From: Torpedo marmorata
Taxonomy: Eukaryota
NCBI GenBank assembly: GCA_977017645.1
Contig: OZ360226.1
Span: 59,458,001 to 59,522,000 of the forward strand
DNA length: 64,000 nucleotides
Direction: 5' to 3'
Positions 23,867-57,859 of this stretch are shown here, in pieces (within the stretch, counting starts at the first letter, position 1; each line of letters begins with the position of its first letter). The position numbers and the translations under genes are program-made. Under the pieces are notes generated by a model. The model was not told the origin of the DNA, searched no databases, and saw only the letters and a program-made list of their open reading frames with translations.

Positions 23867-26800
23867 CTCTCTGAACCACTCAGGTCCAGGACCATGAGCA
23901 CAGCTACCGCCATACAAACAGGAACAGACACTTGGCTTCTCTACATTCTCACGAAGCTCATTGTGGTAAACCACTATAGTATGTATATATGTATTGTGGG
24001 CTGGGGCAAGTCTGACCATGACCTGTCTGTCTGTCCCGGTGACTCCTCCCCCCTTTCCCCTGGAATAAAGGCCTTGAGCCATTGACTCCACCCACAGTTC
24101 CGGGACAGTCCAGCAGGGATCACCAGGTCAAGTGTAGCTTAGCCCTGGCCTGATTTCTGGTATTAAAAGCCTATTGATTTCCTGCACTTCCAGACTCGCG
24201 TCTGTCATTGATAGGTACATCAATTTTAATACCAGATCTAAAATCCGATGGAGAATTTTCTGAGGCCGGACAAGCTGGACATCGACCCCCTGGCCCAAGA
24301 CGCCGCAAGTGACTTTGAACTCTGGCTACGCTGCCTCGTAGCCTTCCTGAGGTCGACCAGAGCGGTTACCAACGAGAATAAACTCGACATCCTCATGTCC
24401 AGGGTAAGCAAACGAGTGTATGGCACTGTCAGAGACTGTGATACCTATGAGGATGCCTTGGAAGCCCTCCGAAGGCTGTACCTGACGCCAGTGAACGAGG
24501 TTTTCGTGAGGCACCGGTTATCGCAACGGCACCAGCGACACGGAGAGTCGATCTCTGAATATATCCAGGACGTGCAGCTCCTGGTGCGGGCGTGCGATTG
24601 CCGAGCCCAGACGGCCGAGCAACACGCCGAAATATTGGCAAGGGACACTATTATTATGGGGCTCAGGTCGGTTTACATTCGCCAGCGATTGCTGGAACAC
24701 GCCGACCTGACCCTGAGATCTACCGTCCAGACGGCCCTCACGCTGGAGTCGGCGCTCAGGAACGCTGACGCTATGCAGACGCAGCCTGCCCAATGGATCG
24801 CCCCAACCGCCAGCCCTGCAAGCAACGCGACGGCCGCTGCCGTCTACCGGGACCCGATCGCAGCTGCCGACGCTATCCGTGAGTTGGCCGCTGCCGCCGC
24901 TACCCGGGAGCCCGCCGCCAACCGTGAGTTAACCGCTGCCGCTGTTACCCGGGAGCCCGAGAAGTGTTACTTCTGCGGGCTCGACAAACACCCACGTAAG
25001 CGCTGCCCGGCCCGAGACGCGACTTGTTCTAGTTGCGGCAAGAAAGGCCACTACGCAAAGGCCTGCCGCTCCAAGTCGCGTACGGGTCCGAGCAGCGCCG
25101 CATGCGAAGTAAGGGAGCGGCCATCTTACCTGTCGTCACTTCCGGCGGTTACCTCGTGCGAGGAATGGAGGCGGCCATCTTGGCCTTCGGCATTTCCGGT
25201 TTCGACATTTCCAGCGCGGCCATTTTATAGCCTCACCGCGGCGGCACTTCCAGCACTTCCGGCGCCGCCATCTTGTAGCGACACGTGTGAGCTGCGGGAG
25301 CTGCCATCAGCGTTGGATCAAGACGGCTCGTCGGATCAAGACTACGTCCCGACCCTGGCATCCGTGACGCTGGATCAAAGCGCGCCCCATCAGCTGTCCA
25401 GATCGATGATGGACATATTGGTTGAGGGGCATAAGACTACCTGCCTGTTCGACACAGGCAGTACTGAAAGCTTTGTTCACCCAGACACTGCCCAGCGCTG
25501 TGGCCTCACAATTGTACCGGTAAGCCAGAAGGTGGCCATGGCGTCTGGAACTCACACAACAGACATCCGGGGGGGTTGTGTGGCGAACATAGTAGTGCAG
25601 GGCACGGAATATCGGGGATTTTCATTGATGGTCATGCCCCGTTTGTGTGCTCCTGTATTGCTGGGACTAGACTTCCAAAGCCACCTGCGAAGCGTCACCA
25701 TGCACTATGATGGGCCCCACCCTCCGATCGTAGTGACCAACCCCCAGTACTTGCATAATACGCCCCAGACTACCTGTGGTCTCTCCACGCTGAAGACCCA
25801 ACCCCCGTCACTTTTCGCCAACCTGACCCCTGACTGTAAGCCTGTAGCGACTAAAAGTAGGCGATACAGTGCAGGGGACAGGGCATTCATTAAGGCGGAG
25901 GTGCATCGTCTACTGGGGGAAGGGATCATTGCACACAGTAACAGCCCCTGGAGAGCACAGGTAGTCGTGGTGAAGAACGGGGCTAAGAGCCGGATGGTGG
26001 TGGACTATAGCCAGACCATTAACCGGTTCACGCAACTGGATGCCTATCCGCTGCCAAGAATCGCGGATATGGTCAACCAGATTGCGCAGTATAAAATATT
26101 TTCAACCATTGATCTAAAATCGGCTTACCACCAGCTTCCGATTCGCCGGGAGGACCGAGCGTACACCGCTTTCGAGGCGGACGGCAGATTATTCAATTTT
26201 CTGCGCGTCCCCTTCGGGGTAACTAACGGGGTATCTGTGTTTCAACGGGAGATGGACAGGATCATTGACCAGTTCAAACTCACTGCCACCTTCCCGTACC
26301 TGGACGACATCACCATTTGTGGTCATGATCGCCAGGATCACGATAAGAACCTTCGGAAGTTACTACAGGCGGCTAAGACGCTGAACCTCACTTATAACGA
26401 GGAGAAATGCGTGTTCGGGACTACCCGACTCGCTATCCTGGGGTGCGTCGTGGAGAACGGGGTGATTGGACCCGACCCCGACCGCATGCGCCCCCTGTTG
26501 GAACTTCCGATTCCCCTTACCCCCAAAGCCCTTAAACGATGCCTCGGGTTCTTCTCGTATTATGCGCAGTGGGTCCCAAACTACGCAGACAAAGCCCGAC
26601 CCCTCGTCAAATCCACCAAGTTTCCCCTAGCAGCGGAGGCACGTGAGGCCTTCGACCTCATAAAAGGGGACATCGCCCGAGCAGCGATGCACACGGTGGA
26701 CGAGTCGGAACCTTTTCAGGTGGAGAGTGACGCATCGGACTTCGCACTGGCTGCTATCCTCAACCAGGCGGGAAGAGCGGTAGCGTTTTTCTCCCGCACC

Positions 26801-28772
26801 CTTCAAGGCCCCGAAATTCGGCACTCCGCGGTAGAGAAAGAGGCCCAGGCCATAGTTGAGGCTGTTCGGCACTGGAGGCACTATCTCGCCGGAAAACATT
26901 TTACCCTGCTGACGGACCAGCGCTCCGTCGCATTCATGTTTAACAGCCAGCAGCGGGGTAAAATCAAGAATGACAAAATCATGAGGTGGAGAATAGAACT
27001 CTCCACCTACAATTACGACATCATGTACCGGCCCGGGAAGCTCAACGAGCCCTCCGACGCTCTATCCCGGGGATCGTGCGCCAGCGCGCAGAACGACCGA
27101 GTATACTCCCTACACAACGACCTCTGCCACCCAGGAGTCACCAGGCTGTTCCACTTCATCAAAGCACGGAACCTGCCTTTCTCCCTGGATGAGGTCAGAA
27201 CCATGACCAGCAGCTGCCGAGTCTGTGCGGAATGCAAACCGCAGTACTACCGCCCCGACAGAGCACAGCTGGTCAAGGCCACCCGCCTGTTCGAACGTCT
27301 CAGTATAGACTTCAAGGGCCCCCTTCCCTCCACGAACTGCAATGTGTACTTCCTTAACATCATCGATGAGTACTCGCGGTTCCCCTTTGCCATCCCCTGC
27401 ACTGATACCTCGGCGGCTTCGGCTATTAAAGCCCTGCGCCAGGTATTCACCTTGTTCGGCTTCCCCAGCTATGTCCATAGCGATCGGGGATCCGCGTTCA
27501 TGAGCGAGGAGCTGCGACAGTATTTGCAGACCCGAGGCATCGCCACCAGTAGGACCACGGGGTACAACCCGCGGGGGAACGGACAGGTGGAGAGGGAGAA
27601 CGCCACTGTATGGACAGCTACACTACTGGCCCTGAAATCAAAAGGGTGGCCAGTGGCCCGCTGGCAGGAGGTTCTCCCGGACGCCCTCCACTCTATACGA
27701 TCCCTCTTATGTACCGCCACTAACGCTACCCCTCACGAACGTCTCTTTTCCTTCCCCAGAAAATCGACCACCGGAACTACCCTCCCTGCCTGGCTGACGT
27801 CCCCGGGACCGGTGCTACTCCGCAAACATCTTCGGAGTAGCAAGTACGAGCCCTTGGTCGAGAGGGTGCAGCTGATCCACGCGAACCCGCAGTACGCATT
27901 CGTGGTTTTCCCCGACGGGCGGGAAGACACGGTGTCAATACGGGACCTGGCGCCTGCAGGAGCGTCAGAAGAGGTCCCCGACAGCGGGAACGCCGGGTCA
28001 CAGCTGCCCCCTCCGCCCCATTCGCCTCCCAGCACGGCGGGTACAACGCCCCAGCCGGAGCTGGAAGAGCCACAAGCCAGGCAGGAGGCAAACCAGACCC
28101 AGACCCACCCTACTCTCGTTCCACAACCACAACCATCAACTCTCGTTCCACAACCACAACCATCACCGCAGGTATCACGTACCCTCATTCCACAACCACT
28201 ACCATCACCGCTGGTATTACGCAGGTCACAGCGGCGAATCCGGCCGCCGGTTAGACTCAATCTATAGACGTGATAATTACTATGTAAATAATCTGTGTAT
28301 ATTTGTGTTTTCTTTAATTACGGTATCCACTTCATCCCCCCCCCGTCGGACTTGTTCTAAAAGAAGGGGTGAATGTGGTAAACCACTATAGTATGTATAT
28401 ATGTATTGTGGGCTGGGGCAAGTCTGACCATGACCTGTCTGTCTGTCCCGGTGACTCCTCCCCCCTTTCCCCTGGAATAAAGGCCTTGAGCCATTGACTC
28501 CACCCACAGTTCCGGGACAGTCCAGCAGGGATCACCAGGTCAAGTGTAGCTTAGCCCTGGCCTGATTTCTGGTATTAAAAGCCTATTGATTTCCTGCACT
28601 TCCAGACTCGCGTCTGTCATTGATAGGTACATCACTCATCATCGTCATAGAGATTCTGATTCATATCAAAAACCACAACAGAAGTCACATTATTTTTAAA
28701 ACTCTTGCCTACAGGATTAAAACCCCACTTCTGTTCTGAAGTTGTTCCTTTTTTCAAAGATGCCAAGTTGCG
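23867..28772 (-). CDS. Candidate host exon (228 bp after removing the Gypsy and one TSD), interrupted by the Gypsy element
   Basis: 28772-28640 plus 23961-23867 read RNLASLKKGTTSEQKWGF...NLYDDDELRENVEKPSVCSCLYGGSCAHGPGPEWFRE with no stop; acceptor ttcttacAG, donor GAG|GTAAAC, phase 0-0. Confidence 0.65.
23962..28634 (+). mobile_element. Intact, very young Gypsy LTR retrotransposon
   Basis: 261-bp LTRs 23962-24222 and 28374-28634 appear identical; TG..CA termini; perfect 5-bp TSD ctcat; PPT aaaagaaggggtgaa; CpG-rich interior. Confidence 0.98.
24248..28267 (+). CDS. Gag-Pol polyprotein (Gag, 2 zinc knuckles, PR, RT, RNaseH, IN), 1339 aa
   Basis: CYFCGLDKH..C, CSSCGKKGHYAKAC, LFDTGS, PFG, YLDD, SDAS, H..HPG..CRVC, IDFKGP, SDRG, NGQVERE. 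Confidence 0.97.
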   Translation: MENFLRPDKLDIDPLAQDAASDFELWLRCLVAFLRSTRAVTNENKLDILMSRVSKRVYGTVRDCDTYEDALEALRRLYLTPVNEVFVRHRLSQRHQRHGESISEYIQDVQLLVRACDCRAQTAEQHAEILARDTIIMGLRSVYIRQRLLEHADLTLRSTVQTALTLESALRNADAMQTQPAQWIAPTASPASNATAAAVYRDPIAAADAIRELAAAAATREPAANRELTAAAVTREPEKCYFCGLDKHPRKRCPARDATCSSCGKKGHYAKACRSKSRTGPSSAACEVRERPSYLSSLPAVTSCEEWRRPSWPSAFPVSTFPARPFYSLTAAALPALPAPPSCSDTCELRELPSALDQDGSSDQDYVPTLASVTLDQSAPHQLSRSMMDILVEGHKTTCLFDTGSTESFVHPDTAQRCGLTIVPVSQKVAMASGTHTTDIRGGCVANIVVQGTEYRGFSLMVMPRLCAPVLLGLDFQSHLRSVTMHYDGPHPPIVVTNPQYLHNTPQTTCGLSTLKTQPPSLFANLTPDCKPVATKSRRYSAGDRAFIKAEVHRLLGEGIIAHSNSPWRAQVVVVKNGAKSRMVVDYSQTINRFTQLDAYPLPRIADMVNQIAQYKIFSTIDLKSAYHQLPIRREDRAYTAFEADGRLFNFLRVPFGVTNGVSVFQREMDRIIDQFKLTATFPYLDDITICGHDRQDHDKNLRKLLQAAKTLNLTYNEEKCVFGTTRLAILGCVVENGVIGPDPDRMRPLLELPIPLTPKALKRCLGFFSYYAQWVPNYADKARPLVKSTKFPLAAEAREAFDLIKGDIARAAMHTVDESEPFQVESDASDFALAAILNQAGRAVAFFSRTLQGPEIRHSAVEKEAQAIVEAVRHWRHYLAGKHFTLLTDQRSVAFMFNSQQRGKIKNDKIMRWRIELSTYNYDIMYRPGKLNEPSDALSRGSCASAQNDRVYSLHNDLCHPGVTRLFHFIKARNLPFSLDEVRTMTSSCRVCAECKPQYYRPDRAQLVKATRLFERLSIDFKGPLPSTNCNVYFLNIIDEYSRFPFAIPCTDTSAASAIKALRQVFTLFGFPSYVHSDRGSAFMSEELRQYLQTRGIATSRTTGYNPRGNGQVERENATVWTATLLALKSKGWPVARWQEVLPDALHSIRSLLCTATNATPHERLFSFPRKSTTGTTLPAWLTSPGPVLLRKHLRSSKYEPLVERVQLIHANPQYAFVVFPDGREDTVSIRDLAPAGASEEVPDSGNAGSQLPPPPHSPPSTAGTTPQPELEEPQARQEANQTQTHPTLVPQPQPSTLVPQPQPSPQVSRTLIPQPLPSPLVLRRSQRRIRPPVRLNL

Positions 28773-30971: not shown

Positions 30972-31576
30972 TATAGTGACTTCAATCCAACAAATAGTCA
31001 CTTGGAGGCTAGGTGAGATACTTGTTCTTGACGCGTTTCAATTAATTTACTAACAAAGTCCAATATGTTCAAAACTTTATTTACACATGAGGACTTGTAT
31101 CAATCTTCAATGACTTAAATATCTTCTTTAATGAAATATAAACAATTCTTGATAACGATGCTTAATAACGATTCTTCAAAATGTCTATAAACTTCCTTTA
31201 AACGATTCCTTTAACACTCATTTAAACGTCCTTTAAACGTGGCTTTAAACGTTACTTTAAACATCCTTTAAATGGTCAATGAAAGATATGACGATCTCAC
31301 TCACCCTCCTTGGTCGCCATATTTTATACTACAACTACTCCGATTCGCGCATGCTCCAAATGCGCATACTCCACTGCACATACTCCACCGCGCATACTCC
31401 ACTGCGCATACTCCCGTCACTTCCCCACTGCGCATGCGCCCGTCGGCACTCTTGCACATGCGCAGAGTACTCAATAGGCCTAGCACGGCCTACTAATCTC
31501 TGTAAGTCCTCCGAAACCCACTGGTCCCATTGGAACGCCGCGATTAAGGTAAGACACCAAGCCTATTGCTCTTACA
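30972..31576 (-). mobile_element. Solo LTR of a related BEL subfamily
   Basis: Starts TGTAAGAGC, ends CACTATA; shares U5 blocks (gaacatattggactttgttagtaaattaatt) with 32061-32733; TSD caccg/cacca. Confidence 0.88.
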
Positions 31577-32100
31577 CACCATTCCATACCCAAATGGGAG
31601 TCTGATTTCCAGGTTACTGCTATACATTTTTTGCTACTGCTAGTGCGATTTTAACAAATTCTTTTTGATACATATTTAATTTCAATTTTGGTCTTATCGC
31701 CTTAACATTACCTAATAAAAACAACGTTGGATCTTGTGGAAATTTAGTTCCTATAATCTGCTCTAAAAAGGTTCTTAAGTCTATCCAAAAAGGTTTTACT
31801 TTAGGGCAAGACCAAGTTGAATGCAAAAAAGTACCTATTTCCTGATTACATCTAAAACATTGATCTGATAAATCTGATTTTAACCTTTTCAATTTCTGTG
31901 GTGTAATATATAATTGGTGTAAAAAATTATAATGAACCAATCTATACCTAACCTTTATTGTATTTGTCATACTATCTCGACATAACTCTGACCAATTTCG
32001 TTCATCAATATTAATATTCAAATCCATCTCCCATCTTTGTCTAGACCTATGAATCCCTTGTGTAAGAGCCGTAGGCTCGTTAACTTACCGTTGTTGCGGC

Positions 32101-32290
32101 GCTCCGATGTCTCGTCGGGCCTTGGAGCGCTCGCGTTGTTATGTAGGCCGTCCTCGGAGCGCTCCGAGGCCACGTCGGGCCATGGAGCGCTCGCGTTGTT
32201 CTGTAGGCCGCCGTCGGCCCGTTTCTTTGATCTGCGCATGCGCGGGAGTGCCGACGGACGCATGCGCAGTATGGAGTGACGTCATTGTGC
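32101..32290 (+). promoter_or_regulatory. LTR U3: 60-bp tandem repeat, NRF1-type GCGCATGCGC motifs and a CRE
   Basis: Repeat units 32101-32160 and 32161-32220; tgcgcatgcgc at 32233; TGACGTCA at 32277-32284; CpG rich. Confidence 0.55.
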
Positions 32291-33179
32291 GCGTGGGAGG
32301 CTGGGAATTGTAGTATGCGCGGTGGAGGGTGCGCAGAGCCATTAGGAGTGACGGAGGATGCGCAAATCAAGTATAGAGAGAGAATAAAGGAAAGGAAAAG
32401 ATGTATGGAGGGTTAGTCTGGTCTCCACATCTTTATTGACCGTTTTTATATCGTTTTATATCGTTTTATAATGTTTTTATAACTTCAACATCATCTACAG
32501 TGTTTCATATCGTTTTGGAATTGTTTAAGGAATAATTTAAAGGAACTCATCATACATCGTTTACAAGAACTGTTTGTATTAAAGTCATTGAAGATTACTG
32601 CAAGTCATGTGTGAAAATAAAGGTTTTTGAACATATTGGACTTTGTTAGTAAATTAATTAAAACGCGTCAAAAGCAAGGACCACACTTAGCCTCCAGGTG
32701 ACTATTGGTGGAGCGAAGTCACCGTTACTTATAGTCAATAAAGTGCTGGCTGTTTGGAACAGAAGTTTGAAGGAAAGAAGATAAAAAAACCTCTCTGTGC
32801 TTTGGACTGATATAAATTGGTGGCCATTTTGGAGATGCCTCGAGTTGGGGGCAGTTTGTAATCTACATCCATCTGCCATGAATAACAGACAGAGAGGGAT
32901 TTAAAGCTTCAAATCTTATAATAAAGTGTCCTATAAATACGTTGGAGAAACTATTTTTGGAAAATCAGTGATATTAGTGACGGATGTTGTGGTTGAAACT
33001 CGTTTAAGGATTGCAGCACATTACAGTCATTAGAAGTGGTAGGCATAAGTCTGTGGACTCCTTCTGTGTATCTTTAGCAAGTAAGAACACAGATTGGAAT
33101 TGCTGCCGCTGGTCCATTGGGGACTGTTGTTTGACTAGTGTTGTGTATGCTTGAAGGAAAGAGGAACAAGACGAGTAAA

Positions 33180-36100
33180 ATGGCCGCAGCAGCCACTGAT
33201 ACAGCAGCTACTGATATATCAGCAGCTGACGCAGCAACCGCTGATGTTGCTGTTGAGGACCAACGTATTGAAGACATGAAGGTTGCGGATATTAAAGAAG
33301 AATTGAAGCGACTGAAAAGGGACATAAGTGGAAATAAAAAGGTTCTTATCGAAAGATTGAAGCAGGCAAAGGATGAAGAGGCAGCTTCATTAAATGAACA
33401 AGAGGATAACTTGAAAATGGCTGAAATTGTGTCACCAAATGTTGAAGAAATTGAAGTGGTTGAAAATGCAAAGGATATACAATTTGAATTGGATAAAGAG
33501 GTAAGTATGAAGACAACATATGAACTGCAGGACGAAATACAAGCAAGTGACAGTGTCTCAAATGCTGAAAGCAGGAGAAGCAAAAGAAGTTCTGGTTCGA
33601 GCTCCAGAGTTTCTCGTACTTCAAGTTCTGCGTCATCACGTACAAAGATTAATGTTAAATTGGCCGCTCTTCTTGCACAACAAAAAACGCTTAAGGATAA
33701 ATATATTTTGGAAGAAGAGGAGGAGCAGCTAAGACAAAAGGAGGAGCAGCTAAAGGAGCAGCTAAAGGAGCAGCTAAGACAAAATGAGAAGCAGCTAATG
33801 GAGCAGCTAAGACAAGAGAAGGAGCAGCTAAGGAAGAGAAAAGAACAGCAGGAGCTGGAAGCAAACATTGCTATTGCCAAGGCAGAAAAGAAAGCAATAG
33901 AAGGCTCAATGGTATCTGGTGTTAGCAGTAAATCATCTAAATTGTCTGATAATAAAAGGTCATATTTAAAAAAGGAGTCACAGGAAAAGAAACCAACCAA
34001 AAGGATAGATATTTTAGAACCAAGGATACAAAACTTACATATACAAGGACAAACCTTTCAAGAGCATATTGGTATCGAGTCACATGTACCAATAATAACA
34101 TCTGAAAGCAAAGCTGCGGCTTGGGTTCGGTCGAACGAAGTAGCTTCTTTGTTATATGAGTCGAGCATCAGAAATGTGGAAGAAACTACACCATTGAGGT
34201 TTCCAGATACATTGCATGCAACAAGAGACGGTGAACAGAGCAATGTATTGTCGTCCAAGGAAAGACAAAATGAAATTGCTGCATCATTGTTTCAGTTACA
34301 GTCTCTCTCTTCTTTACCCAAGAAAGAGATACAAACTTTTGATGGTGATCCACTTCAATATCAATCATTTATGAGATCTTTCAAACGCAATATTGAAGAT
34401 AAATGCCAAGATCGAGATGAATGTCTTTATTATTTGGAAATGTTCACAAAGGGACATCCAAAAGAACTGGTAAAAAGTTGTAACCAAATGTCTTCAGGAA
34501 GAGGATTAGATAAAGCTAAGGATTTATTGGAACAATATTTTGGCAACAAACATCGAATTGCTTTAGCTTATATGGATAAAGCTCTTAAATGGACATCAAT
34601 AAAACAAAATGATGTAAAGGCTTTGCAAGAATATACTTTGTTTTTAAGAGGATGTTGTAATGCTATGGAAGAAATCGATGGTATTCGTGAGCTTGATGTG
34701 CATAGTAATATGCGAATCATTTTAGAAAAATTACCTTACAAGGTATGGGATAGATGGAGAAATTTGGCTTGTGATTTACAAGTAAATTATGGTCGAAGAA
34801 TTACTTTAAAGGATTTGGTAAATTTTCTTGAACGACAAGTGTATGTTGAAACAGATCCACTATATGGAAATACCAGAGATAATTCAATGAGCAAAGATGT
34901 AAGGAAGTCTAATTCACAGTCTAGTCCGAAAGTGAAAAGGAGTACTTTTGCTACTAATGTGCAAGTTATAAGTAAAGAAAAGGACAAAATAAATAAGGAA
35001 AAGGAAAGTTTGCCTAATGAAAAGAGTTGTTTGTTCTGTAAAGGTGGACATGCTTTGGAAATGTGTTTACAATTGGAAAGGAAGGAACATAAAGAAAGGA
35101 TCGCTTTCTTAAAGGAAAATGGAATATGTTTTAGCTGTCTGTGTAAAGGGCACATCAGTAAAAACTGCGAGAAGCAAATTAATTGTGACATATGCAATTT
35201 TAAACATCCTAGAATTTTGCATATCCATAACAGAAACAAGGAATTGGAAAAGGAGCAAACAGAAACAAAGGAAACAACAGAAAATAATGTTATAACCTCG
35301 GTTCAGACAAGTAGTGGTCTTACTGGGGCCGGGGTGAATAACTGCAAACTATCAATAGTGCCTGTACAAGTTAAGGCCAAGAAAGGGGATGCAATAGTAA
35401 AAACATATGCATTTCTAGACCCAGGTAGCACTGCATCTTTTTGCACGGAAGGACTAATGAATAAACTTAATATTCAAGGAAGAAAATCAAGAATTATGTT
35501 AAAAACCATGGGACAAGAAAAGGTTGTTGAAACTAACATTGTTTCAGGCTTAGAGGTTGCTGGATTGGATGACAAAAAATTTTGTGATCTTCCAAGTGTA
35601 TATACTCAAAAGACTATGCCTGTGAACGAAGGAAATATTCCTCATCAAAGTGATATCCATCATTTAGCTTATCTGTGGAAGGTTTATTTACCTGAAATTA
35701 ATTCTGAGGTAGAAATGCTGATTGGTTCAGATGTGCCAAAGGTTTTGGTACCAAAAGAAGTAATAGAAAGTAAAAGGAATGGACCTTACGCTATTAGAAC
35801 CATACTTGGTTGGGCAATCAATGGACCAATGGAAAGAAATAATGATATTGCTCAGGCACAGGTAGCGATAAATGTTAATAAAATTTCAATTGAGAAAGTT
35901 GAAGAGTTAAGAGAAGAGCAAAAAACCGTGAATAAGAAAATCACTTATGAAGAAAAGAAAACAGATCAATGTAACAATAAATCAGTGGTATTTAAAACAA
36001 CATTGAAGAAATTAATTTCGTCAGAAATGGATGAAAGTGAAGTATTAGAAGATATTGCAAATAATACTATTGATCATTCATGTGTAATTGAATCAGATAC

Positions 36101-36944
36101 AGGAATAAAACAAGTGACTGAAAACAAATCTGAATGTAGATTTTATAGTTCAGAGATTACAACAGACAAAGCTAATGAAGAAATATTACAATGTGATGTA
36201 AAACTGGAAAACACAGAAAATTGTGCTGATGGAATAAAGAATAATGTGAATGATAATTCAATGCAATTGAATCCAGAGAACAAAATGTTGAAAGGGGAAT
36301 TGGAAATATTAGATAATCAAGAAAACAGTAAACAGAAAGATTTAATTGTAAGTAAAACTCGCAAAGTCAGAAAGCGGAAGAAAAGAATAACGGCTGAAGA
36401 AATGAATACAGTTATCGAAGAAAGAGATTCAGCATTATCAAAATGTAAAAGGTTGGAGGAAGAGATTAATGTTTTAAAAGAGAACAAGTTATTGGTTAAT
36501 AACACAAAACAATTAACAATACAGAAAGAATGTGATATTGCATTGCAGAAATGTAACAAACAAGATGAAGAAATTAAAAAATTTCAAGTTTGTCGCAACA
36601 GGATTGACAATGGAAATATCAATGTATCAAATGATATTTTGACTTCAGATCAAATTATTAATTTCTCGGAAAGAACTGAGACTGAATTGAAAGTTGCAAA
36701 ATTGGATTTAGAATTGCAGGAAAGAGCAATAGAAACCAGAGTGGTTAAACAGACCTGTTTGAAGTCGAAAGAATCAGATAAATATTCAAATTCTAATTCT
36801 AAGAGTTTAAATTCTTCACATGAGAAGTGGAATACTGAAGAAAGGAATAAAGTGAAACGACGTGCTGAAGAAGTGCCTTGTGTTAAATTCAAAAGAAAAA
36901 CTGTATCTATTTTGTCTGAGGAGGATTTGGGGTTTACTGGTTAA
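33180..36944 (+). CDS. SAP domain - coiled coil - BEL Gag - 3 zinc knuckles - aspartic protease - MIPOL1-like C-terminal extension
   Basis: ATG in aaaATGG context; SAP MKVADIKEELKRLKRDISGNKKVLIERL; FDGDP (DUF1759-like); CLFC/CFSC/CDIC knuckles; AFLDPGS protease; GPYAIRTILGW; no RT (YxDD), RNaseH or IN core. Confidence 0.9.
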   Translation: MAAAATDTAATDISAADAATADVAVEDQRIEDMKVADIKEELKRLKRDISGNKKVLIERLKQAKDEEAASLNEQEDNLKMAEIVSPNVEEIEVVENAKDIQFELDKEVSMKTTYELQDEIQASDSVSNAESRRSKRSSGSSSRVSRTSSSASSRTKINVKLAALLAQQKTLKDKYILEEEEEQLRQKEEQLKEQLKEQLRQNEKQLMEQLRQEKEQLRKRKEQQELEANIAIAKAEKKAIEGSMVSGVSSKSSKLSDNKRSYLKKESQEKKPTKRIDILEPRIQNLHIQGQTFQEHIGIESHVPIITSESKAAAWVRSNEVASLLYESSIRNVEETTPLRFPDTLHATRDGEQSNVLSSKERQNEIAASLFQLQSLSSLPKKEIQTFDGDPLQYQSFMRSFKRNIEDKCQDRDECLYYLEMFTKGHPKELVKSCNQMSSGRGLDKAKDLLEQYFGNKHRIALAYMDKALKWTSIKQNDVKALQEYTLFLRGCCNAMEEIDGIRELDVHSNMRIILEKLPYKVWDRWRNLACDLQVNYGRRITLKDLVNFLERQVYVETDPLYGNTRDNSMSKDVRKSNSQSSPKVKRSTFATNVQVISKEKDKINKEKESLPNEKSCLFCKGGHALEMCLQLERKEHKERIAFLKENGICFSCLCKGHISKNCEKQINCDICNFKHPRILHIHNRNKELEKEQTETKETTENNVITSVQTSSGLTGAGVNNCKLSIVPVQVKAKKGDAIVKTYAFLDPGSTASFCTEGLMNKLNIQGRKSRIMLKTMGQEKVVETNIVSGLEVAGLDDKKFCDLPSVYTQKTMPVNEGNIPHQSDIHHLAYLWKVYLPEINSEVEMLIGSDVPKVLVPKEVIESKRNGPYAIRTILGWAINGPMERNNDIAQAQVAINVNKISIEKVEELREEQKTVNKKITYEEKKTDQCNNKSVVFKTTLKKLISSEMDESEVLEDIANNTIDHSCVIESDTGIKQVTENKSECRFYSSEITTDKANEEILQCDVKLENTENCADGIKNNVNDNSMQLNPENKMLKGELEILDNQENSKQKDLIVSKTRKVRKRKKRITAEEMNTVIEERDSALSKCKRLEEEINVLKENKLLVNNTKQLTIQKECDIALQKCNKQDEEIKKFQVCRNRIDNGNINVSNDILTSDQIINFSERTETELKVAKLDLELQERAIETRVVKQTCLKSKESDKYSNSNSKSLNSSHEKWNTEERNKVKRRAEEVPCVKFKRKTVSILSEEDLGFTG
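36260..36760 (+). other. MIPOL1: Captured host-gene-like segment (MIPOL1 coiled coil)
   Basis: RITAEEMNTVIEERDSALSKCKRLEEEI and KLDLELQERAIETRVVKQT resemble vertebrate MIPOL1 segments as recalled from memory; not database-checked. Confidence 0.7.
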
Positions 36945-36979
36945 CGTTTTGACTCGGATTGTGAAGATGGAAGAACTTT

Positions 36980-37165
36980 AAAGAGACATTGTGATTGTTA
37001 TGGATGGTTCAACTTCAAGAAATTCCTGGTTACTTGGAAAAGATTATTGAGACTTTTCAAGACAAAGAGGACTTGTGCGTCAAGTGCGAATTAAAACTAA
37101 GACTGGTTTTTCTAAACAGACCTATTAACAAGGTCTGCCTTTTGTTGGAGACAGAGGAACTTTGA
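36980..37165 (+). pseudogene. Frameshifted BEL integrase C-terminal (DUF5641-like) remnant
   Basis: DIVIVMDGSTSRNSWLLGKIIETF / GLVRQVRIKTKTG / RPINKVCLLLE in shifting frames. Confidence 0.8.
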
Positions 37166-38913
37166 TAAATATAAACTGACTTTATTTGTTGTATATTTCA
37201 CAGGTTACAGACTTTTGTTGAATCAGAGTTATGGTAAACTCTAGATTTATGAAGAAGGAAGAAAGAAGATTTGTATTGTTTTGAATGTTATGGTTATTAT
37301 TATTTATAGTGTAATTATTATTCAAGACATTACGTCTAATTATAATAATTAGGGGCCGGTGTAAGAGCCGTAGGCTCGTTAACTTACCGTTGTTGCGGCG
37401 CTCCGATGTCTCGTCGGGCCTTGGAGCGCTCGCGTTGTTATGTAGGCCGTCCTCGGAGCGCTCCGATGCCACGTCGGGCCATGGAGCGCTCGCGTTGTTC
37501 TGTAGGCCGCCGTCGGCCCGTTTCTTTGATCTGCGCATGCGCGGGAGTGCCGACGGACGCATGCGCAGTATGGAGTGACGTCATTGTGCGCGTGGGAGGC
37601 TGGGAATTGTAGTATGCGCGGTGGAGGGTGCGCAGAGCCATTAGGAGTGACGGAGGATGCGCAAATCAAGTATAGAGAGAGAATAAAGGAAAGGAAAAGA
37701 TGTATGGAGGGTTAGTCTGGTCTCCACATCTTTATTGACCGTTTTTATATCGTTTTATATCGTTTTATAATGTTTTTATAACTTCAACATCATCTACAGT
37801 GTTTCATATCGTTTTGGAATTGTTTAAGGAATAATTTAAAGGAACTCATCATACATCGTTTACAAGAACTGTTTGTATTAAAGTCATTGAAGATTACTGC
37901 AAGTCATGTGTGAAAATAAAGGTTTTTGAACATATTGGACTTTGTTAGTAAATTAATTAAAACGCGTCAAAAGCAAGGACCACACTTAGCCTCCAGGTGA
38001 CTATTGGTGGAGCGAAGTCACCGTTACTTATACCTTGTTTAGAAGTTCCTTTTTGTAGTAAGGTATACATGGCTGAAGTAAATTTCTTTGTATGTCTATT
38101 CCGAATCAAAATTTCGATATCACTAGGTTTTGTTAATAACATTGTTGGGCCTAATTTATCTCTTAAATATGCTCTTAACTGAAAATAACAAAAAAAATGT
38201 ATTATTTTGTATTCCATATTTATTTCTTAATTGTTCAAATGACATTAATTTAGCATGCAAGGGATTTGAACAATTACTTGGCTTTGAAACAGACTTCAGA
38301 TTCCCAGGCATCCATCAGGAAAAGTTCAAGTAAAATAAATTTTCTCTGACTATGAGATCATTTTGAATCAATTGGATAAAATGTAAAATCTTTTCTTGTC
38401 TCTATTTTACCCAAATAGATAGTTGAGAAATCTTCAATGGGTGAGCAGACCTGGATTATTCAGAGCTGTTGAGATATCACTCTTTATTCAGCCACTGCTA
38501 GTTAGGTAATTCCTACTTCTGATTTGTAAGTGAGTTTAGCCCAGAATAAATATGAATGGCATATGTTGCTTTATGGCATAGAAGTTGCTTTTGGATCACT
38601 GGTAAAATATTATAATGCAAACAACTTGTATTTATAGAGAGTGTTCAATTGTATCAAATTTTCCGAAGTATTTCTTGGCTGCAGTTAACAGATTTTCCCT
38701 CAGCAATATTAGGACAGGGTAGGTTATAAAGAGAGTTATAAAGGAGATGGAGAGGTTTAGAGAAAGATTTTCAAAGGTTAGGCCAAGCCAATTGAAAACA
38801 CAGCTGTAATTATGGCAGTGAGGGATATTAGGGGTGCACCAGGGGCCAGGACTGGCATAGCATGGAGTTCTCAGTGGATTTTAGGTTGAAGGAGGTACCA
38901 GAATGGTGTAAGA

Positions 38914-39252: not shown

Positions 39253-41839
39253 TTTTTTTGTTTTTTTTTTAATTTTTATTATTTTATTTAAATTTTTGAA
39301 TCACAAAATACATAGATTAAAATGTATAGCTTTCAAAATACATGTGATATATATTTTCTCCCCCCGTACCCACCCTCCCTTCCCAAACCCCCCCCCATCC
39401 CCACTATTCTAATAAAATAAAATAAAAATATATAATAAAAAAATATAAAGTATAGTAAAAAAGAAAGAAGAAAAAGATAGAATAATAGTGAGGGGAGAAC
39501 CATCTACAAACTAATTCTATCATGGAGGTTAAACTCGCCAGTAGACCTGATATCTAGAGATTTTCAAATCGTTAAACCCAGAACTCTCATATATGGGCTC
39601 CAAATTTTCAAAAAAGAATGATACTTATTGCGTAAATTATAAGTAATCTTTTCTAATGAACGAAGTTCAGCATGCCACCTTTCTAAACTTAAATCTAAAT
39701 CTGATTTCCAAGTAATAGCAATGCATTTTTTTGAAACGGCTAAAGCAATTCGTAAAAATTCTACCTGATACATATTCAATCTATTCCTAATAATAAATTT
39801 TCTAATATCTCCAAATAAAAATAACATAGGATCCATTGGAAACATAACATTGAAAACGCTATCTAAAAAATTCTTAACTTTCAACCAAAAATCTTGAATT
39901 TTTGGACATAACCATGTAGAGTGAACAAAAGAACCTACTTCACTCTTACATCTAAAACACAAATCTGATAATGTCGGATTAAATTTCTTTAACTTTTTTG
40001 GTGTTAAATATAATTGATGGAAAAAATTATATTGTACTAATCTATATCTAACATTAATAACTTTAGTCATACTTAATTTACATAAATCTTTCCAATGATT
40101 TTCAGCTATATTAACATTTAAATCTAATTCCCATTTTAATCTTGATTTATGTAATCCTACTTTAGGCATTTTTCTCTGAAATAATTTATACATTTGAGAA
40201 ATAAACTTATTGACATTTGGTTTAGTTATTAATAATTCTAACTCATTTTGTCTTGGTGCAATCAAATCATCCCCTAATTTCTCAATCAAAAAAGCTTTAA
40301 CTTGATAATAAGATAACCATGTATTATCTAATACATTAAATTTTTCCTTCAATCTTTGAAACGTAACAAATCTTCCAGCTTCAAAACAATCCTTAAAATT
40401 CTTAATTCCTTTTTGAAACCATAATTTCAATAACTGATTATTAATAGTAAATGGTAAAAGTGGATTTTGATATAATGGCATATTTAAAGAAATTGACCCT
40501 TTTCCACCTATTTCTTTATCTACTTGTGTCCATATTTCCAACAAATGTTTAATAATCGGTGAATTTTTCTTTTTTACTGATAATAATTTAGAGTTCCACT
40601 TATAAATAATATCCTCTTTATAATTTTCTCCTATATTATTTAATTCTATATTAATACAAGCTGAAGATTTAGCTAAATCAAAAAATTCATTAACAAATTT
40701 TAATTGAGCTGCTTTATAATAATATTGAAAATTAGGAAGTTGCAATCCTCCCATCTCATAATTCCATGTTAATTTATCCATACTTACTCTTGCTAACTTC
40801 CCTTTCCATAAAAATTTCCTAATAATAAACTTTAAATCTTTAAAAAAAATTTTTGGAATTCCAAAAGGAATTGATTGAAAAAGATATTGAATTCTTGGAA
40901 AAATATTCATCTTAATACAATTTACTCTTCCCATTAAAGTTATAGGCAAATCGTTCCAATTTTCCAAGTCTTTCTTTATTTTCATAAATAAAGGTACATA
41001 ATTTAATTTATACAAATTTTCTAATTTTGTATCCACTTTAACTCACAAATATTTGATTCCTTCTTTTGCCCACTTAAATTCCGTGACCTCTCTACATCTA
41101 GTATAATCACCTTGAGATAAAGCCATTATCTCACTTTTATCTGAATTAATTTTATAACCAGATATTTCACCATATTCTGTTAATATAATAGCTAGTTGTT
41201 GAAGTGATGCAATAGATTTTGTCATATATATTAATACATCATCTGCAAACAGACTAATCTTATGTTCTTCCATACCTACTTTAATCCCTACTATGTTAGG
41301 ATCTTTTCTAATCAATTCAGCCAAAGGTTCTATTGCCAAAACAAATAGGGCTGGTGACAGGGGACATCCCTGCCTCGTAGGACGCGTTAAAGGAAATTTT
41401 GGTGATATTTGTCCATTTGTAATTACTTTAGCTGTAGGTTCTCTATATATAGTTTTAATCCAATTTATAAAAGTATTCCCAAAACCAAATTTCTCTAACA
41501 CCTTAAATAAAAAATTCCATTCTAATCTGTCAAAAGCCTTTTCTGCATCCAGCGTTACAACCAATGGTAAGTCCTGTTTCTTTTATATAAATTAATTAAA
41601 CTTATTAATCTAGCTATATTGTCTTTTGAATATCTATTTTTAATAAAGCCAGCTTGATCTGGATGTATCAAATTTGGTAAATATTTAGCTATTCTGTTTG
41701 CCAAAATTTTTGCCATTATTTTATAGTCTACATTTAACAAAGAAATAGGTCTGTATGTCTCAGTTTTTAATACATCTCTATCTTTCTTTGGTATAACTGT
41801 GATAATAGCATTCAAAAATGTTTTCGGTAATAAATGGGT
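39253..41839 (-). mobile_element. 5'-truncated L1-clade LINE (RT to 3' poly-A)
   Basis: YRPISLLNVDYK, DAEKAFD, RQGCPLSP, LFADD; 17-bp TSD taaatgatcttaatgtt at 39236-39252 and 41840-41856. Confidence 0.95.
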
Positions 41840-42384
41840 TAAATGATCTTAATGTTAATGTAAATCCATTCTGAAGCTCTATTCAGGATCAAATCAGACT
41901 GTGAACAGTTTGACCAGTGAATGAGAGAAGAATGGAGATAGTGGCTGTGAAATTGAAATTGTAGTAGTTCTGAAATCAAAGGCTTAGATCTTCTAAATAT
42001 ATATTTAGAGGAAATGTCTGCTCAGCTATGACTGGAATTTGGAAGGAATGTGACAAATTAAAGGTGGTGGAGTGGCTGAGAGGGACGGAGATGAATTTTC
42101 CCTCGTGAAAATTATTTTTCCTCTCTTTAACCCTTGGGTCTTTAATGATTATTTCAATTATTTCAGTATTTTACTAAGAAGATGCATTTGAATTATTGGC
42201 TTATTCCCCATTATTATTTCCACAGAATGGTTATCAAAGGTACAGATGTTTACCTAAGCTACTCACTGTTTAAGTTCTAAATCTGTTTTTATATTGCTTG
42301 CAAGCTTGCCTTCATAATGTATTTATTGCATTTACTTTTCGGTCATTTTTTTCTGGTATGTAAAATGTTTCCAATCTTCCAGCT

Positions 42385-45300
42385 CAGTGGTTCTCATCCT
42401 TTTTTTCCCCACTCACATACCACCTTAAGTAATCCCTTTAATTGTTGTTTAGATCCAATAATGGGTAAAGCATCAAGATCAGTTGTTAAAACTAAAATTG
42501 CTAAAAGAGTTCTCACTTTGATGAAAGATTTAAATTTAATAGATATTTGGAGAAAAATGAATCCTAGAGAAAAAGATTATTCTTTTTATTCTTTTAGACA
42601 TGATTCATATTCTAGGATAGATTTATTTTTATTGTCTTCACAGGTTCAAGACAGAATAACACAAGCATCTTATAAAGCGAGAATAATTTCTGATCATTCA
42701 CCTTTATTAATATCTTGTATAATTCCAGAAAAATGGAAAACTGTATATAGCTGGAGATTTAATTCTTCTTTATTAAAAAGAAGGGATTTTTGTGATTATA
42801 TGAGAAGGGAAATTCAGGAATTTTTACAAATAAATTCTAATTCCACTGATAATAAATTTATTATTTGGGAAGCTTTAAAGGCTTATTTAAGAGGTCAAAT
42901 AATAAGTTATTCAGCTAAAATTAAGAAGGATTATCTTCGGGAGGTAGACAATTTAGAGAAGGAGATTGAATATTTGGAAAAAGATTTGCAAAAAAATAGA
43001 TCAGATCAAAAAAGGAATAATCTAGTTGGAAAAAAGTGCATTATAATTTATTACAAACATAAAAAATGGAAAAATTAATTGAAAGAACTAAACAAAGATA
43101 TTATGAATTAGGGGAAAGAGCACATAATGTTTTGGCATGGCAATTAAAAAAGATCAAACTTCTAGAACTATAAATGCTATAAAAAAAAGAATTCTAGGGA
43201 AATAACGTATAAACCTCGAGAAATAAATGATTCTTTTAAAGATTATTATTTGAATTTATATAAATCTCAGATTGATCAAGATTATTCTAAAATTAATAGA
43301 TTCTTATCTAAAATTACATTACCTAAATTAAATATTCAAAGCAGAGATTTTTTGGATTTGCCTTTCTCAATGAGGGAAGTTAATGAGGTTCTTACTTCTT
43401 TAACGAGTGGTAAATATCCAGGGGAAGATGGTTTTCCATCTGAATTTTATAAAGAGTTTAAAGATCTAATGATACCTCCGTATATGGATGTATTGAAACA
43501 AATTACGGAAACTCATTCGTTACAGGATACATTTTTGAATGCAATAATTACAGTTATATCTAAAAAAGATAGAGACGTGTTGAAAACAGAATCATATAGA
43601 CCTATTTCATTGTTAAATGTAGACTATAAGATAATGGCAAAAATTTTAGCAAATAGAATGGCTAATTATTTACCAGACTTAATTCATGTAGATCAAGCTG
43701 GTTTTATTAAAAATAGATATTCAAAAGATAATACAGCTAGATTAATTAGTTTAATTAATGTGCATAAAAAGAAGGAAGATTTACCATTAGTATTAACGCT
43801 AGATGCTGAAAAGGCTTTTGATAGATTAGAGTGGAATTTTTTATTTAAGGTATTGGAGAAATTTGGTTTTGGAACTACATTTATTAATTGGATTAAAACT
43901 ATATATAAAGAACCATCTGCTAAAGTAGTTACAAATGGACAAATTTCTTCAAGATTTCCCCTGACTAGATCTACTAGACAAGGATGTCCTTTGTCACCAG
44001 CGTTATTTATTTTGGCGATAGAACCTTTGGCAGAATTAGTTAGAAAAGATGTTAAAATTGTAGGTATTAAAGTTGGAACGGAAGAACATAAAATTAGTTT
44101 ATTTGCAGATGATGTATTGATATATATGACAAAACCTATTACATCTTTAGTACAATTGTCTGCTTTATTGAGAGAATATGGGGAAATATCTGGATATAAG
44201 ATTAATTCTGATAAAAGTGAAATTATGGCATTAACGCAAGGGGATTATAGTAAATGTAAAGAAATTACACAATTTAAATGGTCAAAAGAAGGAATTAAAT
44301 ATTTGGGAATAAAGATTGATACAAAATTGGCTAATTTATATAAATTAAATTATTTACCATTGTTTATAAAAATTAAAAAAGATTTAGAAAATTGGAAAGA
44401 TTTACCTATAACTTTAATGGGAAGGGTAAGTTGTATTAAAATGAATGTTTTTCCAAGAATTCAATATCTTTTTCAATAATTCCTTAAAATTTTTTTAAAG
44501 ATTTAAATTCAATTATTAGGAAGTTTTTATGGAAAGGAAAGTTGGCAAGGGTAGGTAGAGAAAAATTAACTTGGAATTATGAAATGGGTGGTTTACAACT
44601 TCCTAATTTTCAAAATTATTATAAAGCAGCTCAATTAAAATTTGTTAATGAATTTTTTTATTTAACTAAATCTTCTGCTTGGATTAGAATAGAATTAAAT
44701 AATATAGGAGAAGATTCTAAAGAAGAAGTTATTTATAAATGGGTTTCTAAATTAATCTCAACAAGAAGAAAACATTCTCCTATTCTTAAACATTTGTTAG
44801 AAATATGGAATAAGACGTATAAGGAAATAGGAGGAAAAGGATCGATTTCTCCAAAGATGCATTTATATCAAAATGAACTTATTCGATTTACTATTAATAA
44901 TCAATTATTTAAAATTAGGTTTCAAAAAGGAATTAAGAAAATAAATAACTGTTTTCAAGCTGGGAAATTTATTACTTTTCAAAGAATGAAAGATAAATTT
45001 AATATATTGGATAATACACTTTTTGCTTATTATCAAATTAGAGCATTTTTGTTTGGGAAATTAGGTTATAGTTTGATCTTACCAAGACAGAATGAATTAG
45101 AATTATTAGTTACTAAAGGAGATGTAAATAAATTTATTTCTCAAATGTATAGATTGTTTCAGAGAAAAACTCCTAAAATAGGAATTCATAAATCAAGATT
45201 AAAGTGGGAATTAGTTTTAATGTAACAATAGAAGAAAATCATTGGAAAGAATTATGTAAATTAAGTATGACGAAGATTATTAATGTTAGATATAGATTAG

Positions 45301-46148
45301 TACAATACAATTTTTTTCATCAATTATATTTAACACCTAAAAAATTAAAGAAATTTAATCCGACATTATCAGGTTTATGTTTTAGATGTAATAAAGAGGA
45401 AGGTTCCTTTGTACATTCTACATGGTTTTGTCCAAAAGTTTATGATTTTTGGTTGAAAGTTAAAAAAAATTTAGATAAAGTATTAAAGATCACATTCCCA
45501 ATGGATCCTATGATATTTTTGTTTGGAGATATTAAAAAAGTTAGTATTAAGATGAAATTAAATATGTATCAAATAGAATTTTTACGAATTGCTTTAGCTG
45601 TTTCTAAGAAATGCATTGCTATTACATGGAAATCTAATGTAGATTTAGGGTTAGAAAGATGGCATGCAGAACTTCGATCATGCATAAAAAATTACTTATA
45701 ATATACGTAATAAGTATCATTTCTTTTTAAAAATTTGGAGCCCATATATGAAAGCTGTCGGTTTAAGGATTTGAAGATCTCTGGACATCAGATCTACTGG
45801 CGAACCTAACCTCCATAATAGAATTAGTTTATAGATTTATTTTTTAGATTGACATTCTCCTTACTCTATATTTTTCTTTCTTTTTATTTTATTTTTATTT
45901 TTATATTTTTTATTTTATTAGATTAGTTGGGATGGGAGGATTAAGGAGGAGAGGGTGGGAGGGGGGGTGAAAATGTATCACAAGTATTTTGATAATTTTA
46001 TATTTTACCTTATGTATTTTGTGATTTATAATTTTAAGTAAAATATTTTTTTTTTAAAGTAATCCCTTACTAAGCACAGAGCACCTTTGGCATCCTATGG
46101 GATTACTTAAGGTGGTATGTAAGTCGAAAAAAAGGTTGAGAACCACCG
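42385..46148. mobile_element. hAT-Charlie-like palindromic MITE split by an L1
   Basis: cagtggttctca...cataccaccttaagtaatccc / gggattacttaaggtggtatg...tgagaaccaccg. Confidence 0.8.
42439..46056 (+). mobile_element. L1-clade LINE, truncated within the endonuclease, ORF2 frameshifted
   Basis: SRIDLFL, ISDHSP, RT motifs to LFADD, C-terminal CCHC; 12-bp TSD aagtaatccctt at 42427-42438 and 46057-46068. Confidence 0.95.
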
Positions 46149-57818: not shown

Positions 57819-57859
57819 TTGACCTGCTGAGTTTCTCCAGCATTTTTTTTTTTACTTTT
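57819..57859 (+). mobile_element. 41-bp Penelope terminal fragment with TSD
   Basis: ttgacctgctgagtttctccagcatt matches 14345-14370; TSD ttgctaacat at 57809-57818 and 57860-57869. Confidence 0.85.

Follow-up and report, generated by a model that had tools for sequence, protein, structure and literature searches.

Precedents for the kind of event described here are known from mouse circRFWD2 pseudogenes, animal LTR-mediated retrocopies, and the maize element Bs1. The circRFWD2 pseudogenes number 33 copies with LTR-rich flanks, with MMERVK10C-int named in a figure legend and the mechanism left open (Dong et al. 2016, PMC4897178). Like the locus analysed here, they are genomic copies carrying a back-splice junction and a reversed exon order (PMC4897178), however in Torpedo marmorata the junction lies within complete, target-duplicated BEL elements, at the position of pol and with a helper identified, in an in-frame fusion to Gag-protease together with two other genes, and at a far higher copy number. 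In LTR-mediated retrocopies, as here, partial intronless host sequence replaces the internal ORFs whilst both LTRs are kept, with template switching, multi-gene chimeras, further non-autonomous copying, and one BEL case in mosquito all documented by Tan et al. 2016 (PMC5131818). Those cases are young and few-copy, however, with the word "circular" absent from the main text, and the relevant passages describe no lineage that, as here, persists for long, maintains its frame, and exchanges backbones. Maize Bs1 is likewise an LTR element in which portions of three host genes form a chimeric frame, but it is a plant element with one of its three pieces out of frame, and the passages on Bs1 in the papers cited mention no circular donor (PMC13317346, PMC5131818).

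No published description of a BRCA1-MIPOL1-Elongin A element family was found, with subscription journals, Repbase, and Dfam lying outside the search. Acutely transforming retroviruses also join Gag in frame to captured, spliced host sequence and depend on a helper. In these viruses the captured sequence encodes an active protein under selection, whereas here the residues appear to drift almost neutrally, env is absent, and the lineage is long-lived and carried in the germline.

The element and its helper family

The window, the whole stretch of 64,000 nucleotides that was analysed, contains at 32061–38032 a young non-autonomous BEL/Pao element of T. marmorata with the following features.

32056–32060, no strand: 5' target-site duplication CCTTG, read directly from the sequence
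32061–32733, + strand: 5' LTR of 673 nt with TG...TA ends, of the LTR family common to the helper elements
33180–36944, + strand: uninterrupted open frame Gag-protease-BRCA1-MIPOL1-Elongin A, 1254 aa and a stop
33267–33368, + strand: SAP domain of Gag (aa 30–63; PF02037, E=5.3e-9), also present in the helper
34338–34760, + strand: BEL Gag capsid-like region DUF1759 (aa 387–527; PF03564, E=1.1e-5)
35028–35222, + strand: three BEL Gag Cys/His knuckles, read off the translation and alignable to the helper
35340–35915, + strand: aspartic protease (D747) and linker, from Pfam search and helper alignment
35916–36337, + strand: piece of BRCA1 origin, spliced together from portions of two host exons
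36338–36749, + strand: piece of MIPOL1 origin, in the exon order f-g-h followed by b-c and with internal deletions that keep the frame
36598–36599, + strand: back-splice junction between the final base of host exon h and the first base of upstream exon b
36750–36973, + strand: Elongin A-derived piece, containing the stop of the frame (36942–36944) ahead of the BC-box region
36983–37167, + strand: 3' remnant of integrase (DUF5641 region), frameshifted and untranslated, matched to the helper DUF5641 region
37351–37359, + strand: polypurine-tract position 5' of the 3' LTR, the same in helpers, its function presumed from position
37360–38032, + strand: 3' LTR, pair of the 5' LTR
38033–38037, no strand: 3' target-site duplication CCTTG, read directly from the sequence

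The LTR pair and 5-bp target duplication are those of a BEL/Pao element, as are a Gag of BEL type, with DUF1759 and three Cys/His knuckles, and a protease within the same frame, with SAP and DUF1759 above the Pfam cut-off in the window frame and the protease a weak match. The LTR termini are TG...TA instead of TG...CA, likewise in the helpers. A first-pass annotation had inferred recent transposition from near-identical LTRs and a perfect target-site duplication, and had described an uninterrupted ORF of about 1255 aa with only a frameshifted integrase tail past its stop; all of this holds, with one mismatch per 673 nt between the LTRs, CCTTG on both sides, a frame of 1254 aa, and a remnant that matches the helper. 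Contigs of runs X1 and X2 join 32055 to 38033 in the empty-site form, however the flank is itself a LINE repeat, and these contigs are thus no sign of polymorphism. Contigs of run X4, which is only guessed to be RNA, span the whole element and were not counted as evidence. The organism codes of runs X2, X4, and X6 differ from that of X1, and X6 has little depth.

The window element lacks RT and integrase, and the autonomous BEL with the same LTR that the first pass had suggested looking for is present as a BEL/Pao (Belpaoviridae) helper family (L146–L151). Its LTRs, primer-site and purine-tract sequence, Gag, and protease are the same as those of the window element, as is the sequence 3' of the 5' LTR, and its frames of 2018–2134 aa carry RT, an RNase H-type Peptidase_A17, and integrase in the place of the cassette. 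All six long-frame BEL elements examined, picked for frames >2000 aa, share the LTR of the window element and 92–94% of gag-protease. An automated table of target duplications resolved 8 of 18 with crude end-finding, and the flanks were also inspected directly. The 1061-nt cassette stands where the helper has ~3.2 kb of RT-RNase H-integrase; decayed BEL pol was considered as its origin and rejected, with no helper match across window 35922–36982.

The cassette has passed onto newer helper backbones by exchange of its flanks. The window protease and linker region is 96–100% identical to the helpers up to ~35730 and 71–89% identical thereafter, marking a crossover, with the linker ahead of the cassette only 71% identical to the helper. 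Furthermore, the cassette is ~20% diverged from the host, with the protease core 0–4% diverged from the helpers.

Three host donors and the MIPOL1 back-splice junction

Three intronless host pieces from three contigs make up the cassette, namely BRCA1 (78% identity to host exons, contig G000:C61), MIPOL1 (71–87%, G000:C40), and Elongin A (80–85%, G000:C41), each read in the frame native to its gene, which is also that of Gag-protease. Older copies are 91–98% identical to host exons, with four spliced exons of BRCA1, collinear and ending mid-exon, and the Elongin A donor sequence comprises five spliced exons, again collinear and ending mid-exon. At the protein level the last 354 aa match only three of 2918 candidates, all of them MIPOL1 (best E=4.8e-18), as expected from the first-pass annotation, and the DNA-level matches of 71–98% to host exons rule out a coiled-coil artefact. 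MIPOL1 is therefore upheld as a donor, but not as the sole cargo proposed, with only ~137 of ~340 foreign residues derived from it and most of the cassette derived from BRCA1 and Elongin A.

Six nucleotides are shared at the protease-BRCA1 join and a few at the BRCA1-MIPOL1 join, the joins being old, and a source sought for the 19-nt linker between MIPOL1 and Elongin A was not found. Fusion proteins were seen neither among 7247 public candidates of 689–2195 aa nor among the best 120 of 868 protein matches, which is no evidence of absence because repeats are usually masked in protein sets.

The two MIPOL1 blocks are permuted and intronless relative to the host gene, as previously suggested, the host exons having been mapped with canonical splice sites. 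The donor of exon h is joined base-exact to the acceptor of exon b in 29 of 29 older copies, and gapless in the window at 36598/36599, with only AG shared at the join and both outer ends of the piece lying mid-exon. No more than 18 nt of exons d and e is found in the element. Exon a (last 200 nt) and exon i have no matches in 92 element loci. The locus thus displays two marks of a high-confidence circRNA retrocopy, a non-colinear junction at exact splice sites and no sequence of exons lying outside the circle (Dong et al., PMC4897178). The chance of an exact h-b join is estimated at ~1 in 4000, given seven boundaries in the 780 nt of exons b–h and 2 shared nt. Together, the exact back-splice and the mid-exon outer ends make a circular RNA the most likely MIPOL1 donor, and it is very probable, judging from the DNA, that this circle existed as RNA. 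The earlier proposal of mRNA capture by a non-autonomous LTR family is consequently retained for the capture of RNA, but in the case of MIPOL1 probably not of a linear mRNA. Two publications list circles of human and mouse MIPOL1 (PMC8783515, PMC9888537), a match at gene level.

A linear source of the permuted order, whether a lost genomic duplication of b–h, trans-splicing, or two chance template switches, appears improbable. Whilst non-colinear junctions may have other causes (Dong et al., PMC4897178), and permuted joins by internal duplication do arise in copies, such as the triplication of a 405-nt unit in L100, the joins in L100 and all other cassette joins are mid-exon, with h-b exact at both splice sites. 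Additionally, the host holds one copy each of exons b, c, f, g, and h between a and i, and no present-day tandem duplication was found in this interval. The introns flanking exons b–h measure 49.6 and 61.8 kb; inverted repeats between them were dropped as support for back-splicing, being in no excess (68 inverted vs 68 direct). No rolling-circle copies beyond one round were seen among the examined copies.

Selection on the frame and on the cargo

Over the 332 codons of the cassette frame, 10.3 stops would be expected at ~20% divergence and none occurs (P ~1.4e-5), in agreement with the first-pass view that selection keeps the fusion frame open, and seven deletions of 24, 120, 45, 81, 198, 3, and 111 nt (modal values) are all multiples of three. 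The cargo amino acids, by comparison of copies, appear to drift almost freely. Between the window and 16 older copies, dN/dS is 0.34 for the protease, 0.71 for BRCA1, 0.66 for MIPOL1, and 0.76 for Elongin A, with the cargo values near the 0.76–0.82 of private mutations in dead copies. For several older copies the Elongin A alignment is faulty (dN >0.5), with all 16 kept in the pooled values; the better-aligned copies give dS ~0.4 and dN ~0.22, and L081, an RT-bearing element without the cassette, was disregarded. An open frame with nearly freely drifting residues points to selection on translating through the cassette, and not clearly on the cargo protein.

Elongin BC-box sequences could recruit an Elongin BC-cullin ligase, as does HIV Vif, and the cargo might be a working protein module, with the MIPOL1 coiled coil and, in older subfamilies, the Elongin A BC-box aiding particle assembly or countering host defence. 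The three native frames, in frame with Gag-protease, would suit such a module, and older copies hold the start of the Elongin_A domain (E=6.7e-16), with the BC-box-type pattern S/T/P-L-x3-C-x3-L kept in 13 of the 27 loci with the motif. Across 30 young copies, pN/pS in the cassette is 0.36 for shared and 0.78 for private variants (Fisher p=0.045), and the 22 shared MIPOL1 variants (pN/pS 0.24) are distributed 8:1:13 over the three codon positions, only one of them at the second, a pattern that hints at some recent protein constraint, with the third-position excess not significant once CpG sites are removed (p=0.15). However, the long-branch dN/dS of 0.66–0.76 and the 41% protein identity of MIPOL1 at 71–87% DNA identity speak against a module, large deletions run through every piece of the cassette, the linker at the protease end is diverged, and the BC-box region is cut off by a shared stop in 30 of 30 young copies. 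A working module is thus unlikely, and the conserved, protease-released cargo of the first-pass annotation finds no support in the dN/dS values, the loss of the BC-box region from the young frame, or the 71% identity of the linker.

Also doubtful is a broader proposal, in which a circular RNA has come to be inherited and translated within the polyprotein of a retrotransposon. The advantage conferred by the three-gene BRCA1-circMIPOL1-Elongin A chimera would have lain, initially perhaps, in the Elongin BC-box and would now lie in a trimmed MIPOL1 coiled coil that is again constrained; the chimera would for this reason have passed between successive helper backbones, and would by now make up a few percent of a 6-Gb genome.

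BRCA1 is involved in heterochromatin and in the control of retroelements, and the cassette could confer an advantage against silencing at the RNA level, the host silencing itself through the host-like sequence or small RNAs of the element knocking down BRCA1 or Elongin A. This has been proposed for Drosophila telomeric elements with nxf2, piwi, or aub pieces, and the 91–98% host identity of the older copies lies in the range in which cross-targeting was observed there (PMC13534243). However, the young active cassette is ~80% host-identical, a level at which the same study reports almost no host-mapping piRNAs (PMC13534243), and neither in-frame joins nor in-frame deletions are predicted, leaving this advantage a remote prospect.

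Proposed origin and spread

The best explanation overall, to which we assign a probability of roughly 0.72, is template switching among three donors including a MIPOL1 circle, followed by helper-borne spread and selection on read-through. BEL/Pao RT would have switched templates onto host RNAs packaged in the particle, with segments of three RNAs, namely BRCA1 mRNA, a circular RNA of MIPOL1 (exons b–h), and Elongin A mRNA, taking the place of most of pol, and with RT reading on around the circle across the back-splice to give the order f-g-h-b-c-d. The product, retaining LTRs, Gag, and protease, would be copied by the RT and integrase of the autonomous helper family and so amplify, its flanks refreshed repeatedly by recombination with current helpers and its cassette shrinking by deletion. 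Selection would favour translation that traverses the whole cassette and terminates close to the 3' end, with the cargo residues mattering little. The most likely reason would be that, with less untranslated sequence 3' of the stop, the RNA escapes nonsense-mediated decay or its translation-coupled packaging continues to function; we put even odds on this reason, and RNA decay leaves unexplained why a cassette, and not a plain deletion, became abundant.

The first description of circRNA pseudogenes did not settle how such RNAs re-enter genomes, and this family would show one route, a retrotransposon having copied a circular RNA and spread it, with the event fossilised unusually clearly. A single assembly contains the back-splice in a complete LTR element together with the helper, the host gene, and a gradation of older copies, and the MIPOL1 circle would be dated to a cartilaginous fish from DNA alone. 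The family can also serve as a natural experiment on the retention of long open junk frames by defective retroelements, with many copies with and without early stops available for comparison of RNA level and success. By rough estimate the family is abundant, with tens of thousands of copies, and its fragments of BRCA1, MIPOL1, and Elongin A, which run into the thousands, will confuse gene annotation in these fishes, whilst the copies, as a genomic source of back-splice reads, will likewise confuse circRNA calling.

Structure of the element and its helpers

The BEL/Pao retrotransposon at 32061–38032 is helper-dependent, with most of pol replaced by an intronless, in-frame cassette of three host genes that contains a back-splice junction. 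Its two LTRs differ at 1 of 673 sites, CCTTG lies on both sides, and a single 1254-residue frame (33180 to 36944) encodes, in order, a SAP domain, the BEL Gag (DUF1759), three Cys/His knuckles, the protease, and ~340 foreign residues, with an out-of-frame integrase tail downstream of its stop. The first-pass annotation was accurate in describing this ORF, the LTRs, the duplication, and MIPOL1 matches in permuted blocks. LTRs of the cassette family and helpers end in TG...TA instead of the usual TG...CA (window, loci L132–L151), nonetheless with clean 5-bp target duplications. The insertion target was a LINE 3' fragment, and two more LINE copies lie tail-out at 39564–45701.

Features of the window; the three host-derived pieces range from 71–87% identity to host exons
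24242–28267, +, Gypsy-type element, unbroken 1341-codon Gag-protease-RT-RNase H-integrase frame
30976–31466 and 31620–32084, −, older related LTR pieces (opposite orientation) and LINE 3' fragment
32061–38032, +, BEL element
32061–32733, +, 5' LTR (673 sites)
~35916–36337, BRCA1 piece
~36338–36749, MIPOL1 piece
~36750–36973, Elongin A piece
37360–38032, +, 3' LTR (673 sites)
54966–59036, −, broken Gypsy-type element, Gag with SCAN domain

A helper with the same LTR, an early suggestion, was found in the form of six BEL elements selected for frames over 2000 aa. All six have LTR, primer-site, and purine-tract sequence in common with the window and share 92–94% in gag-protease, with RT, Peptidase_A17, and integrase found in the one helper scanned. 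The helper-matching parts of the window are 32061–35921 and 36983–38032, with the 1061-nt cassette occupying the position of ~3.2 kb in the helpers. Host RNA may have been captured by template switching inside the particle, and the element would be copied in trans, as known retroelement biology suggests (PMC5131818, in excerpt).

Host donors and the permutation of MIPOL1

MIPOL1 had been predicted as the best match for the last ~350 residues, and the 3 of 2918 candidate proteins that matched the last 354 are all MIPOL1 (top match a sawfish protein, E = 4.8e-18), with the match of the window frame falling into two blocks of permuted order. MIPOL1 therefore stands as an intronless donor, but not as the sole one, with BRCA1 and Elongin A also captured. 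BRCA1 was identified from 2 matches among 1.84 billion proteins, both named BRCA1 homologs (skate and bamboo shark, E = 3.9e-34 and 3.5e-16), and Elongin A by Pfam (E = 6.7e-16) and homology; rays give the best host-protein matches. In the 6.2-Gb genome assembly, copies match four spliced exons of host BRCA1 (contig C61) at 90–98% and five of host Elongin A (contig C41) at ~88–98%, both pieces being collinear with the host and ending mid-exon. The state of the cassette prior to shrinkage is visible in older copies, which comprise a pol stub, ~670 nt of BRCA1, ~590 nt of MIPOL1, ~740 nt of Elongin A, and an integrase stub. All three pieces are on the sense strand, in their native frames and in frame with Gag-protease, with 594 open codons spanning them in one older copy.

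Host MIPOL1 exons, lettered a–i, were mapped with canonical splice sites across the region bounded by the exons that border the captured part. In the copies, the final 124 nt of f are followed by g, h, b, c, and ~18 nt of d, with ordinary splices at the f–g, g–h, b–c, and c–d joins. At the h–b join, the base preceding the GT of h adjoins the first base following the AG of b, an exon 206 kb upstream of h in the host gene. This join is exact in 29/29 older copies (loci from the MIPOL1 search of the assembly) and gapless in the window (36598/36599). The ends of exons a and h have nothing in common beyond AG, which is too short to direct a template switch. In 92 element loci there is no trace of exon i or of the terminal 200 nt of exon a, and no second host copy of the MIPOL1 exons was found, each tested exon being single-copy. 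As a control within the family, an internal triplication in the copy L100 also permutes MIPOL1, but its joins run from mid-exon to mid-exon. Its 405-nt cargo unit (L100:8713–9999) is in tandem and in frame at 99.8–100% identity, reflecting either recent duplication or an assembly artefact.

The MIPOL1 donor was thus very probably a circular RNA (probability roughly 0.88), as judged from DNA. The proposed capture of permuted, intronless MIPOL1 RNA holds, whereas a linear mRNA donor is improbable, since the h–b join is an exact back-splice. Exons b–h total 780 nt, so the capture would represent three quarters of one round of the circle. In the host (G000:C40:64591881-64385712, L088–L068) these exons are stop-free and close in phase, such that the putative circle would form an endless reading frame. 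The flanking introns measure 49.6 kb and 61.8 kb, with no enrichment of inverted repeats between the two. MIPOL1 circles are listed for human and mouse (PMC8783515, PMC9888537, both in excerpt).

Capture of multiple genes by LTR elements is already described, in excerpts, for Bs1 (PMC13317346) and by Tan et al. (PMC5131818), and circRNA-derived pseudogenes are known from 33 mouse circRFWD2 copies, whose flanks are LTR-rich (the figure legend indicates an ERV) and whose mechanism of origin the main text leaves open (PMC4897178). No account of this cassette family was found in the literature searched, repeat databases and closed journals lying outside its scope. What appears new is the combination of a probable circular donor inside complete elements, a known helper, in-frame fusion with Gag-protease and two more genes, translatability kept through long divergence, and massive amplification.

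Abundance and history of the cassette

The cassette lineage is long-lived and abundant; its flanks have been renewed and its reading frame preserved. All 40 scored cassette matches in the assembly (window included) are full-length at 96–100% identity. An LTR pair is present in 12/14 copies fetched whole (11 at 96.9–100%, one at 93.4% with gaps), and 9/14 have a frame of 1256–1341 codons with an identical stop position. The MIPOL1 search returned the host gene and a large class of older copies. Four cassette copies and two RT-bearing pieces lie within 365 kb of host-gene tiles selected on other grounds, extrapolating to ~68,000 copies (95% range 19,000–175,000) if this density is typical, a rough estimate as all four cassette copies sit in introns of one gene. 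That gene is the donor MIPOL1 itself (contig C40 tiles L063, L070, L078, and L079).

Deletions in the older cassette gave rise to the young one, and intermediate-age copies have all of them except the 45-nt deletion and one of 3 nt. The young cassette differs from the host at 197/1004 aligned bases, while the protease core (to ~35730) is 96–100% identical to five of six helpers and 93–100% to the sixth, identity falling to 71% in the 90 nt directly preceding the cassette. Compared with 16 older copies, the window has a synonymous distance of 0.61 in the protease versus 0.31–0.35 in BRCA1 and MIPOL1. Together these values indicate that the cassette predates its present flanks and was passed on through recombination with newer helpers. 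Its G+C content (35916–36941) drifted from 38% to 30%, with C>T, C>A, and G>A as the main changes, approaching the element's A-rich composition.

Protection of the reading frame

The 332 host-derived codons contain no stops versus 10.3 expected from the observed substitution spectrum (P ~1.4e-5). Net deletions relative to older copies have modal sizes of 24, 120, 45, 81, 198, 3, and 111 nt (the last scored in the 2 copies retaining that exon), 7/7 being multiples of three (chance ~1 in 2200). Among 30 young copies picked by likeness to the window, the cassette is undisturbed in 21 and the stop falls at an identical codon in all 30.

Selection, as first claimed, is borne out in this open frame and in-frame deletions, but the case for cargo protein function is weaker, with dN/dS (window versus 16 older copies) of 0.34 in the protease and 0.71, 0.66, and 0.76 in BRCA1, MIPOL1, and Elongin A, against 0.76–0.82 among changes private to older copies. 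In the young copies, shared variants show a pN/pS of 0.36 across the cassette (versus private, Fisher p = 0.045) and 0.24 for MIPOL1, whose variants by codon position are 8:1:13 (p = 0.012; 0.15 without CpG sites), no more than a hint of constraint on cargo residues, several regions having been tested. The Elongin A BC-box region is present in older copies, and past the stop or deleted in young ones. A working cargo protein is unlikely. The element is real, with an origin richer than first described (a probable circular RNA, three genes) and a weaker claim to protein function.

Transcripts with long 3' tails can be subject to decay, and packaging can be coupled to translation. The stop lies ~750 nt from the first AATAAA of the 3' LTR, versus ~1800 nt had translation ended after the protease, a shortening that offers a lead to frame protection. 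There is perhaps an even chance that the frame is protected via escape from such decay or via translation-coupled packaging, the least certain part of our account. Small-RNA interference with host genes (compare PMC13534243, in excerpt) is more doubtful still than a cargo protein, and none of the three fully explains the success of the cassette over plain deletions. In some older subfamilies (L098:4319-6100, L099:4471-5934) the Elongin A middle is deleted in frame and the BC-box region retained, the reverse of the young subfamily.
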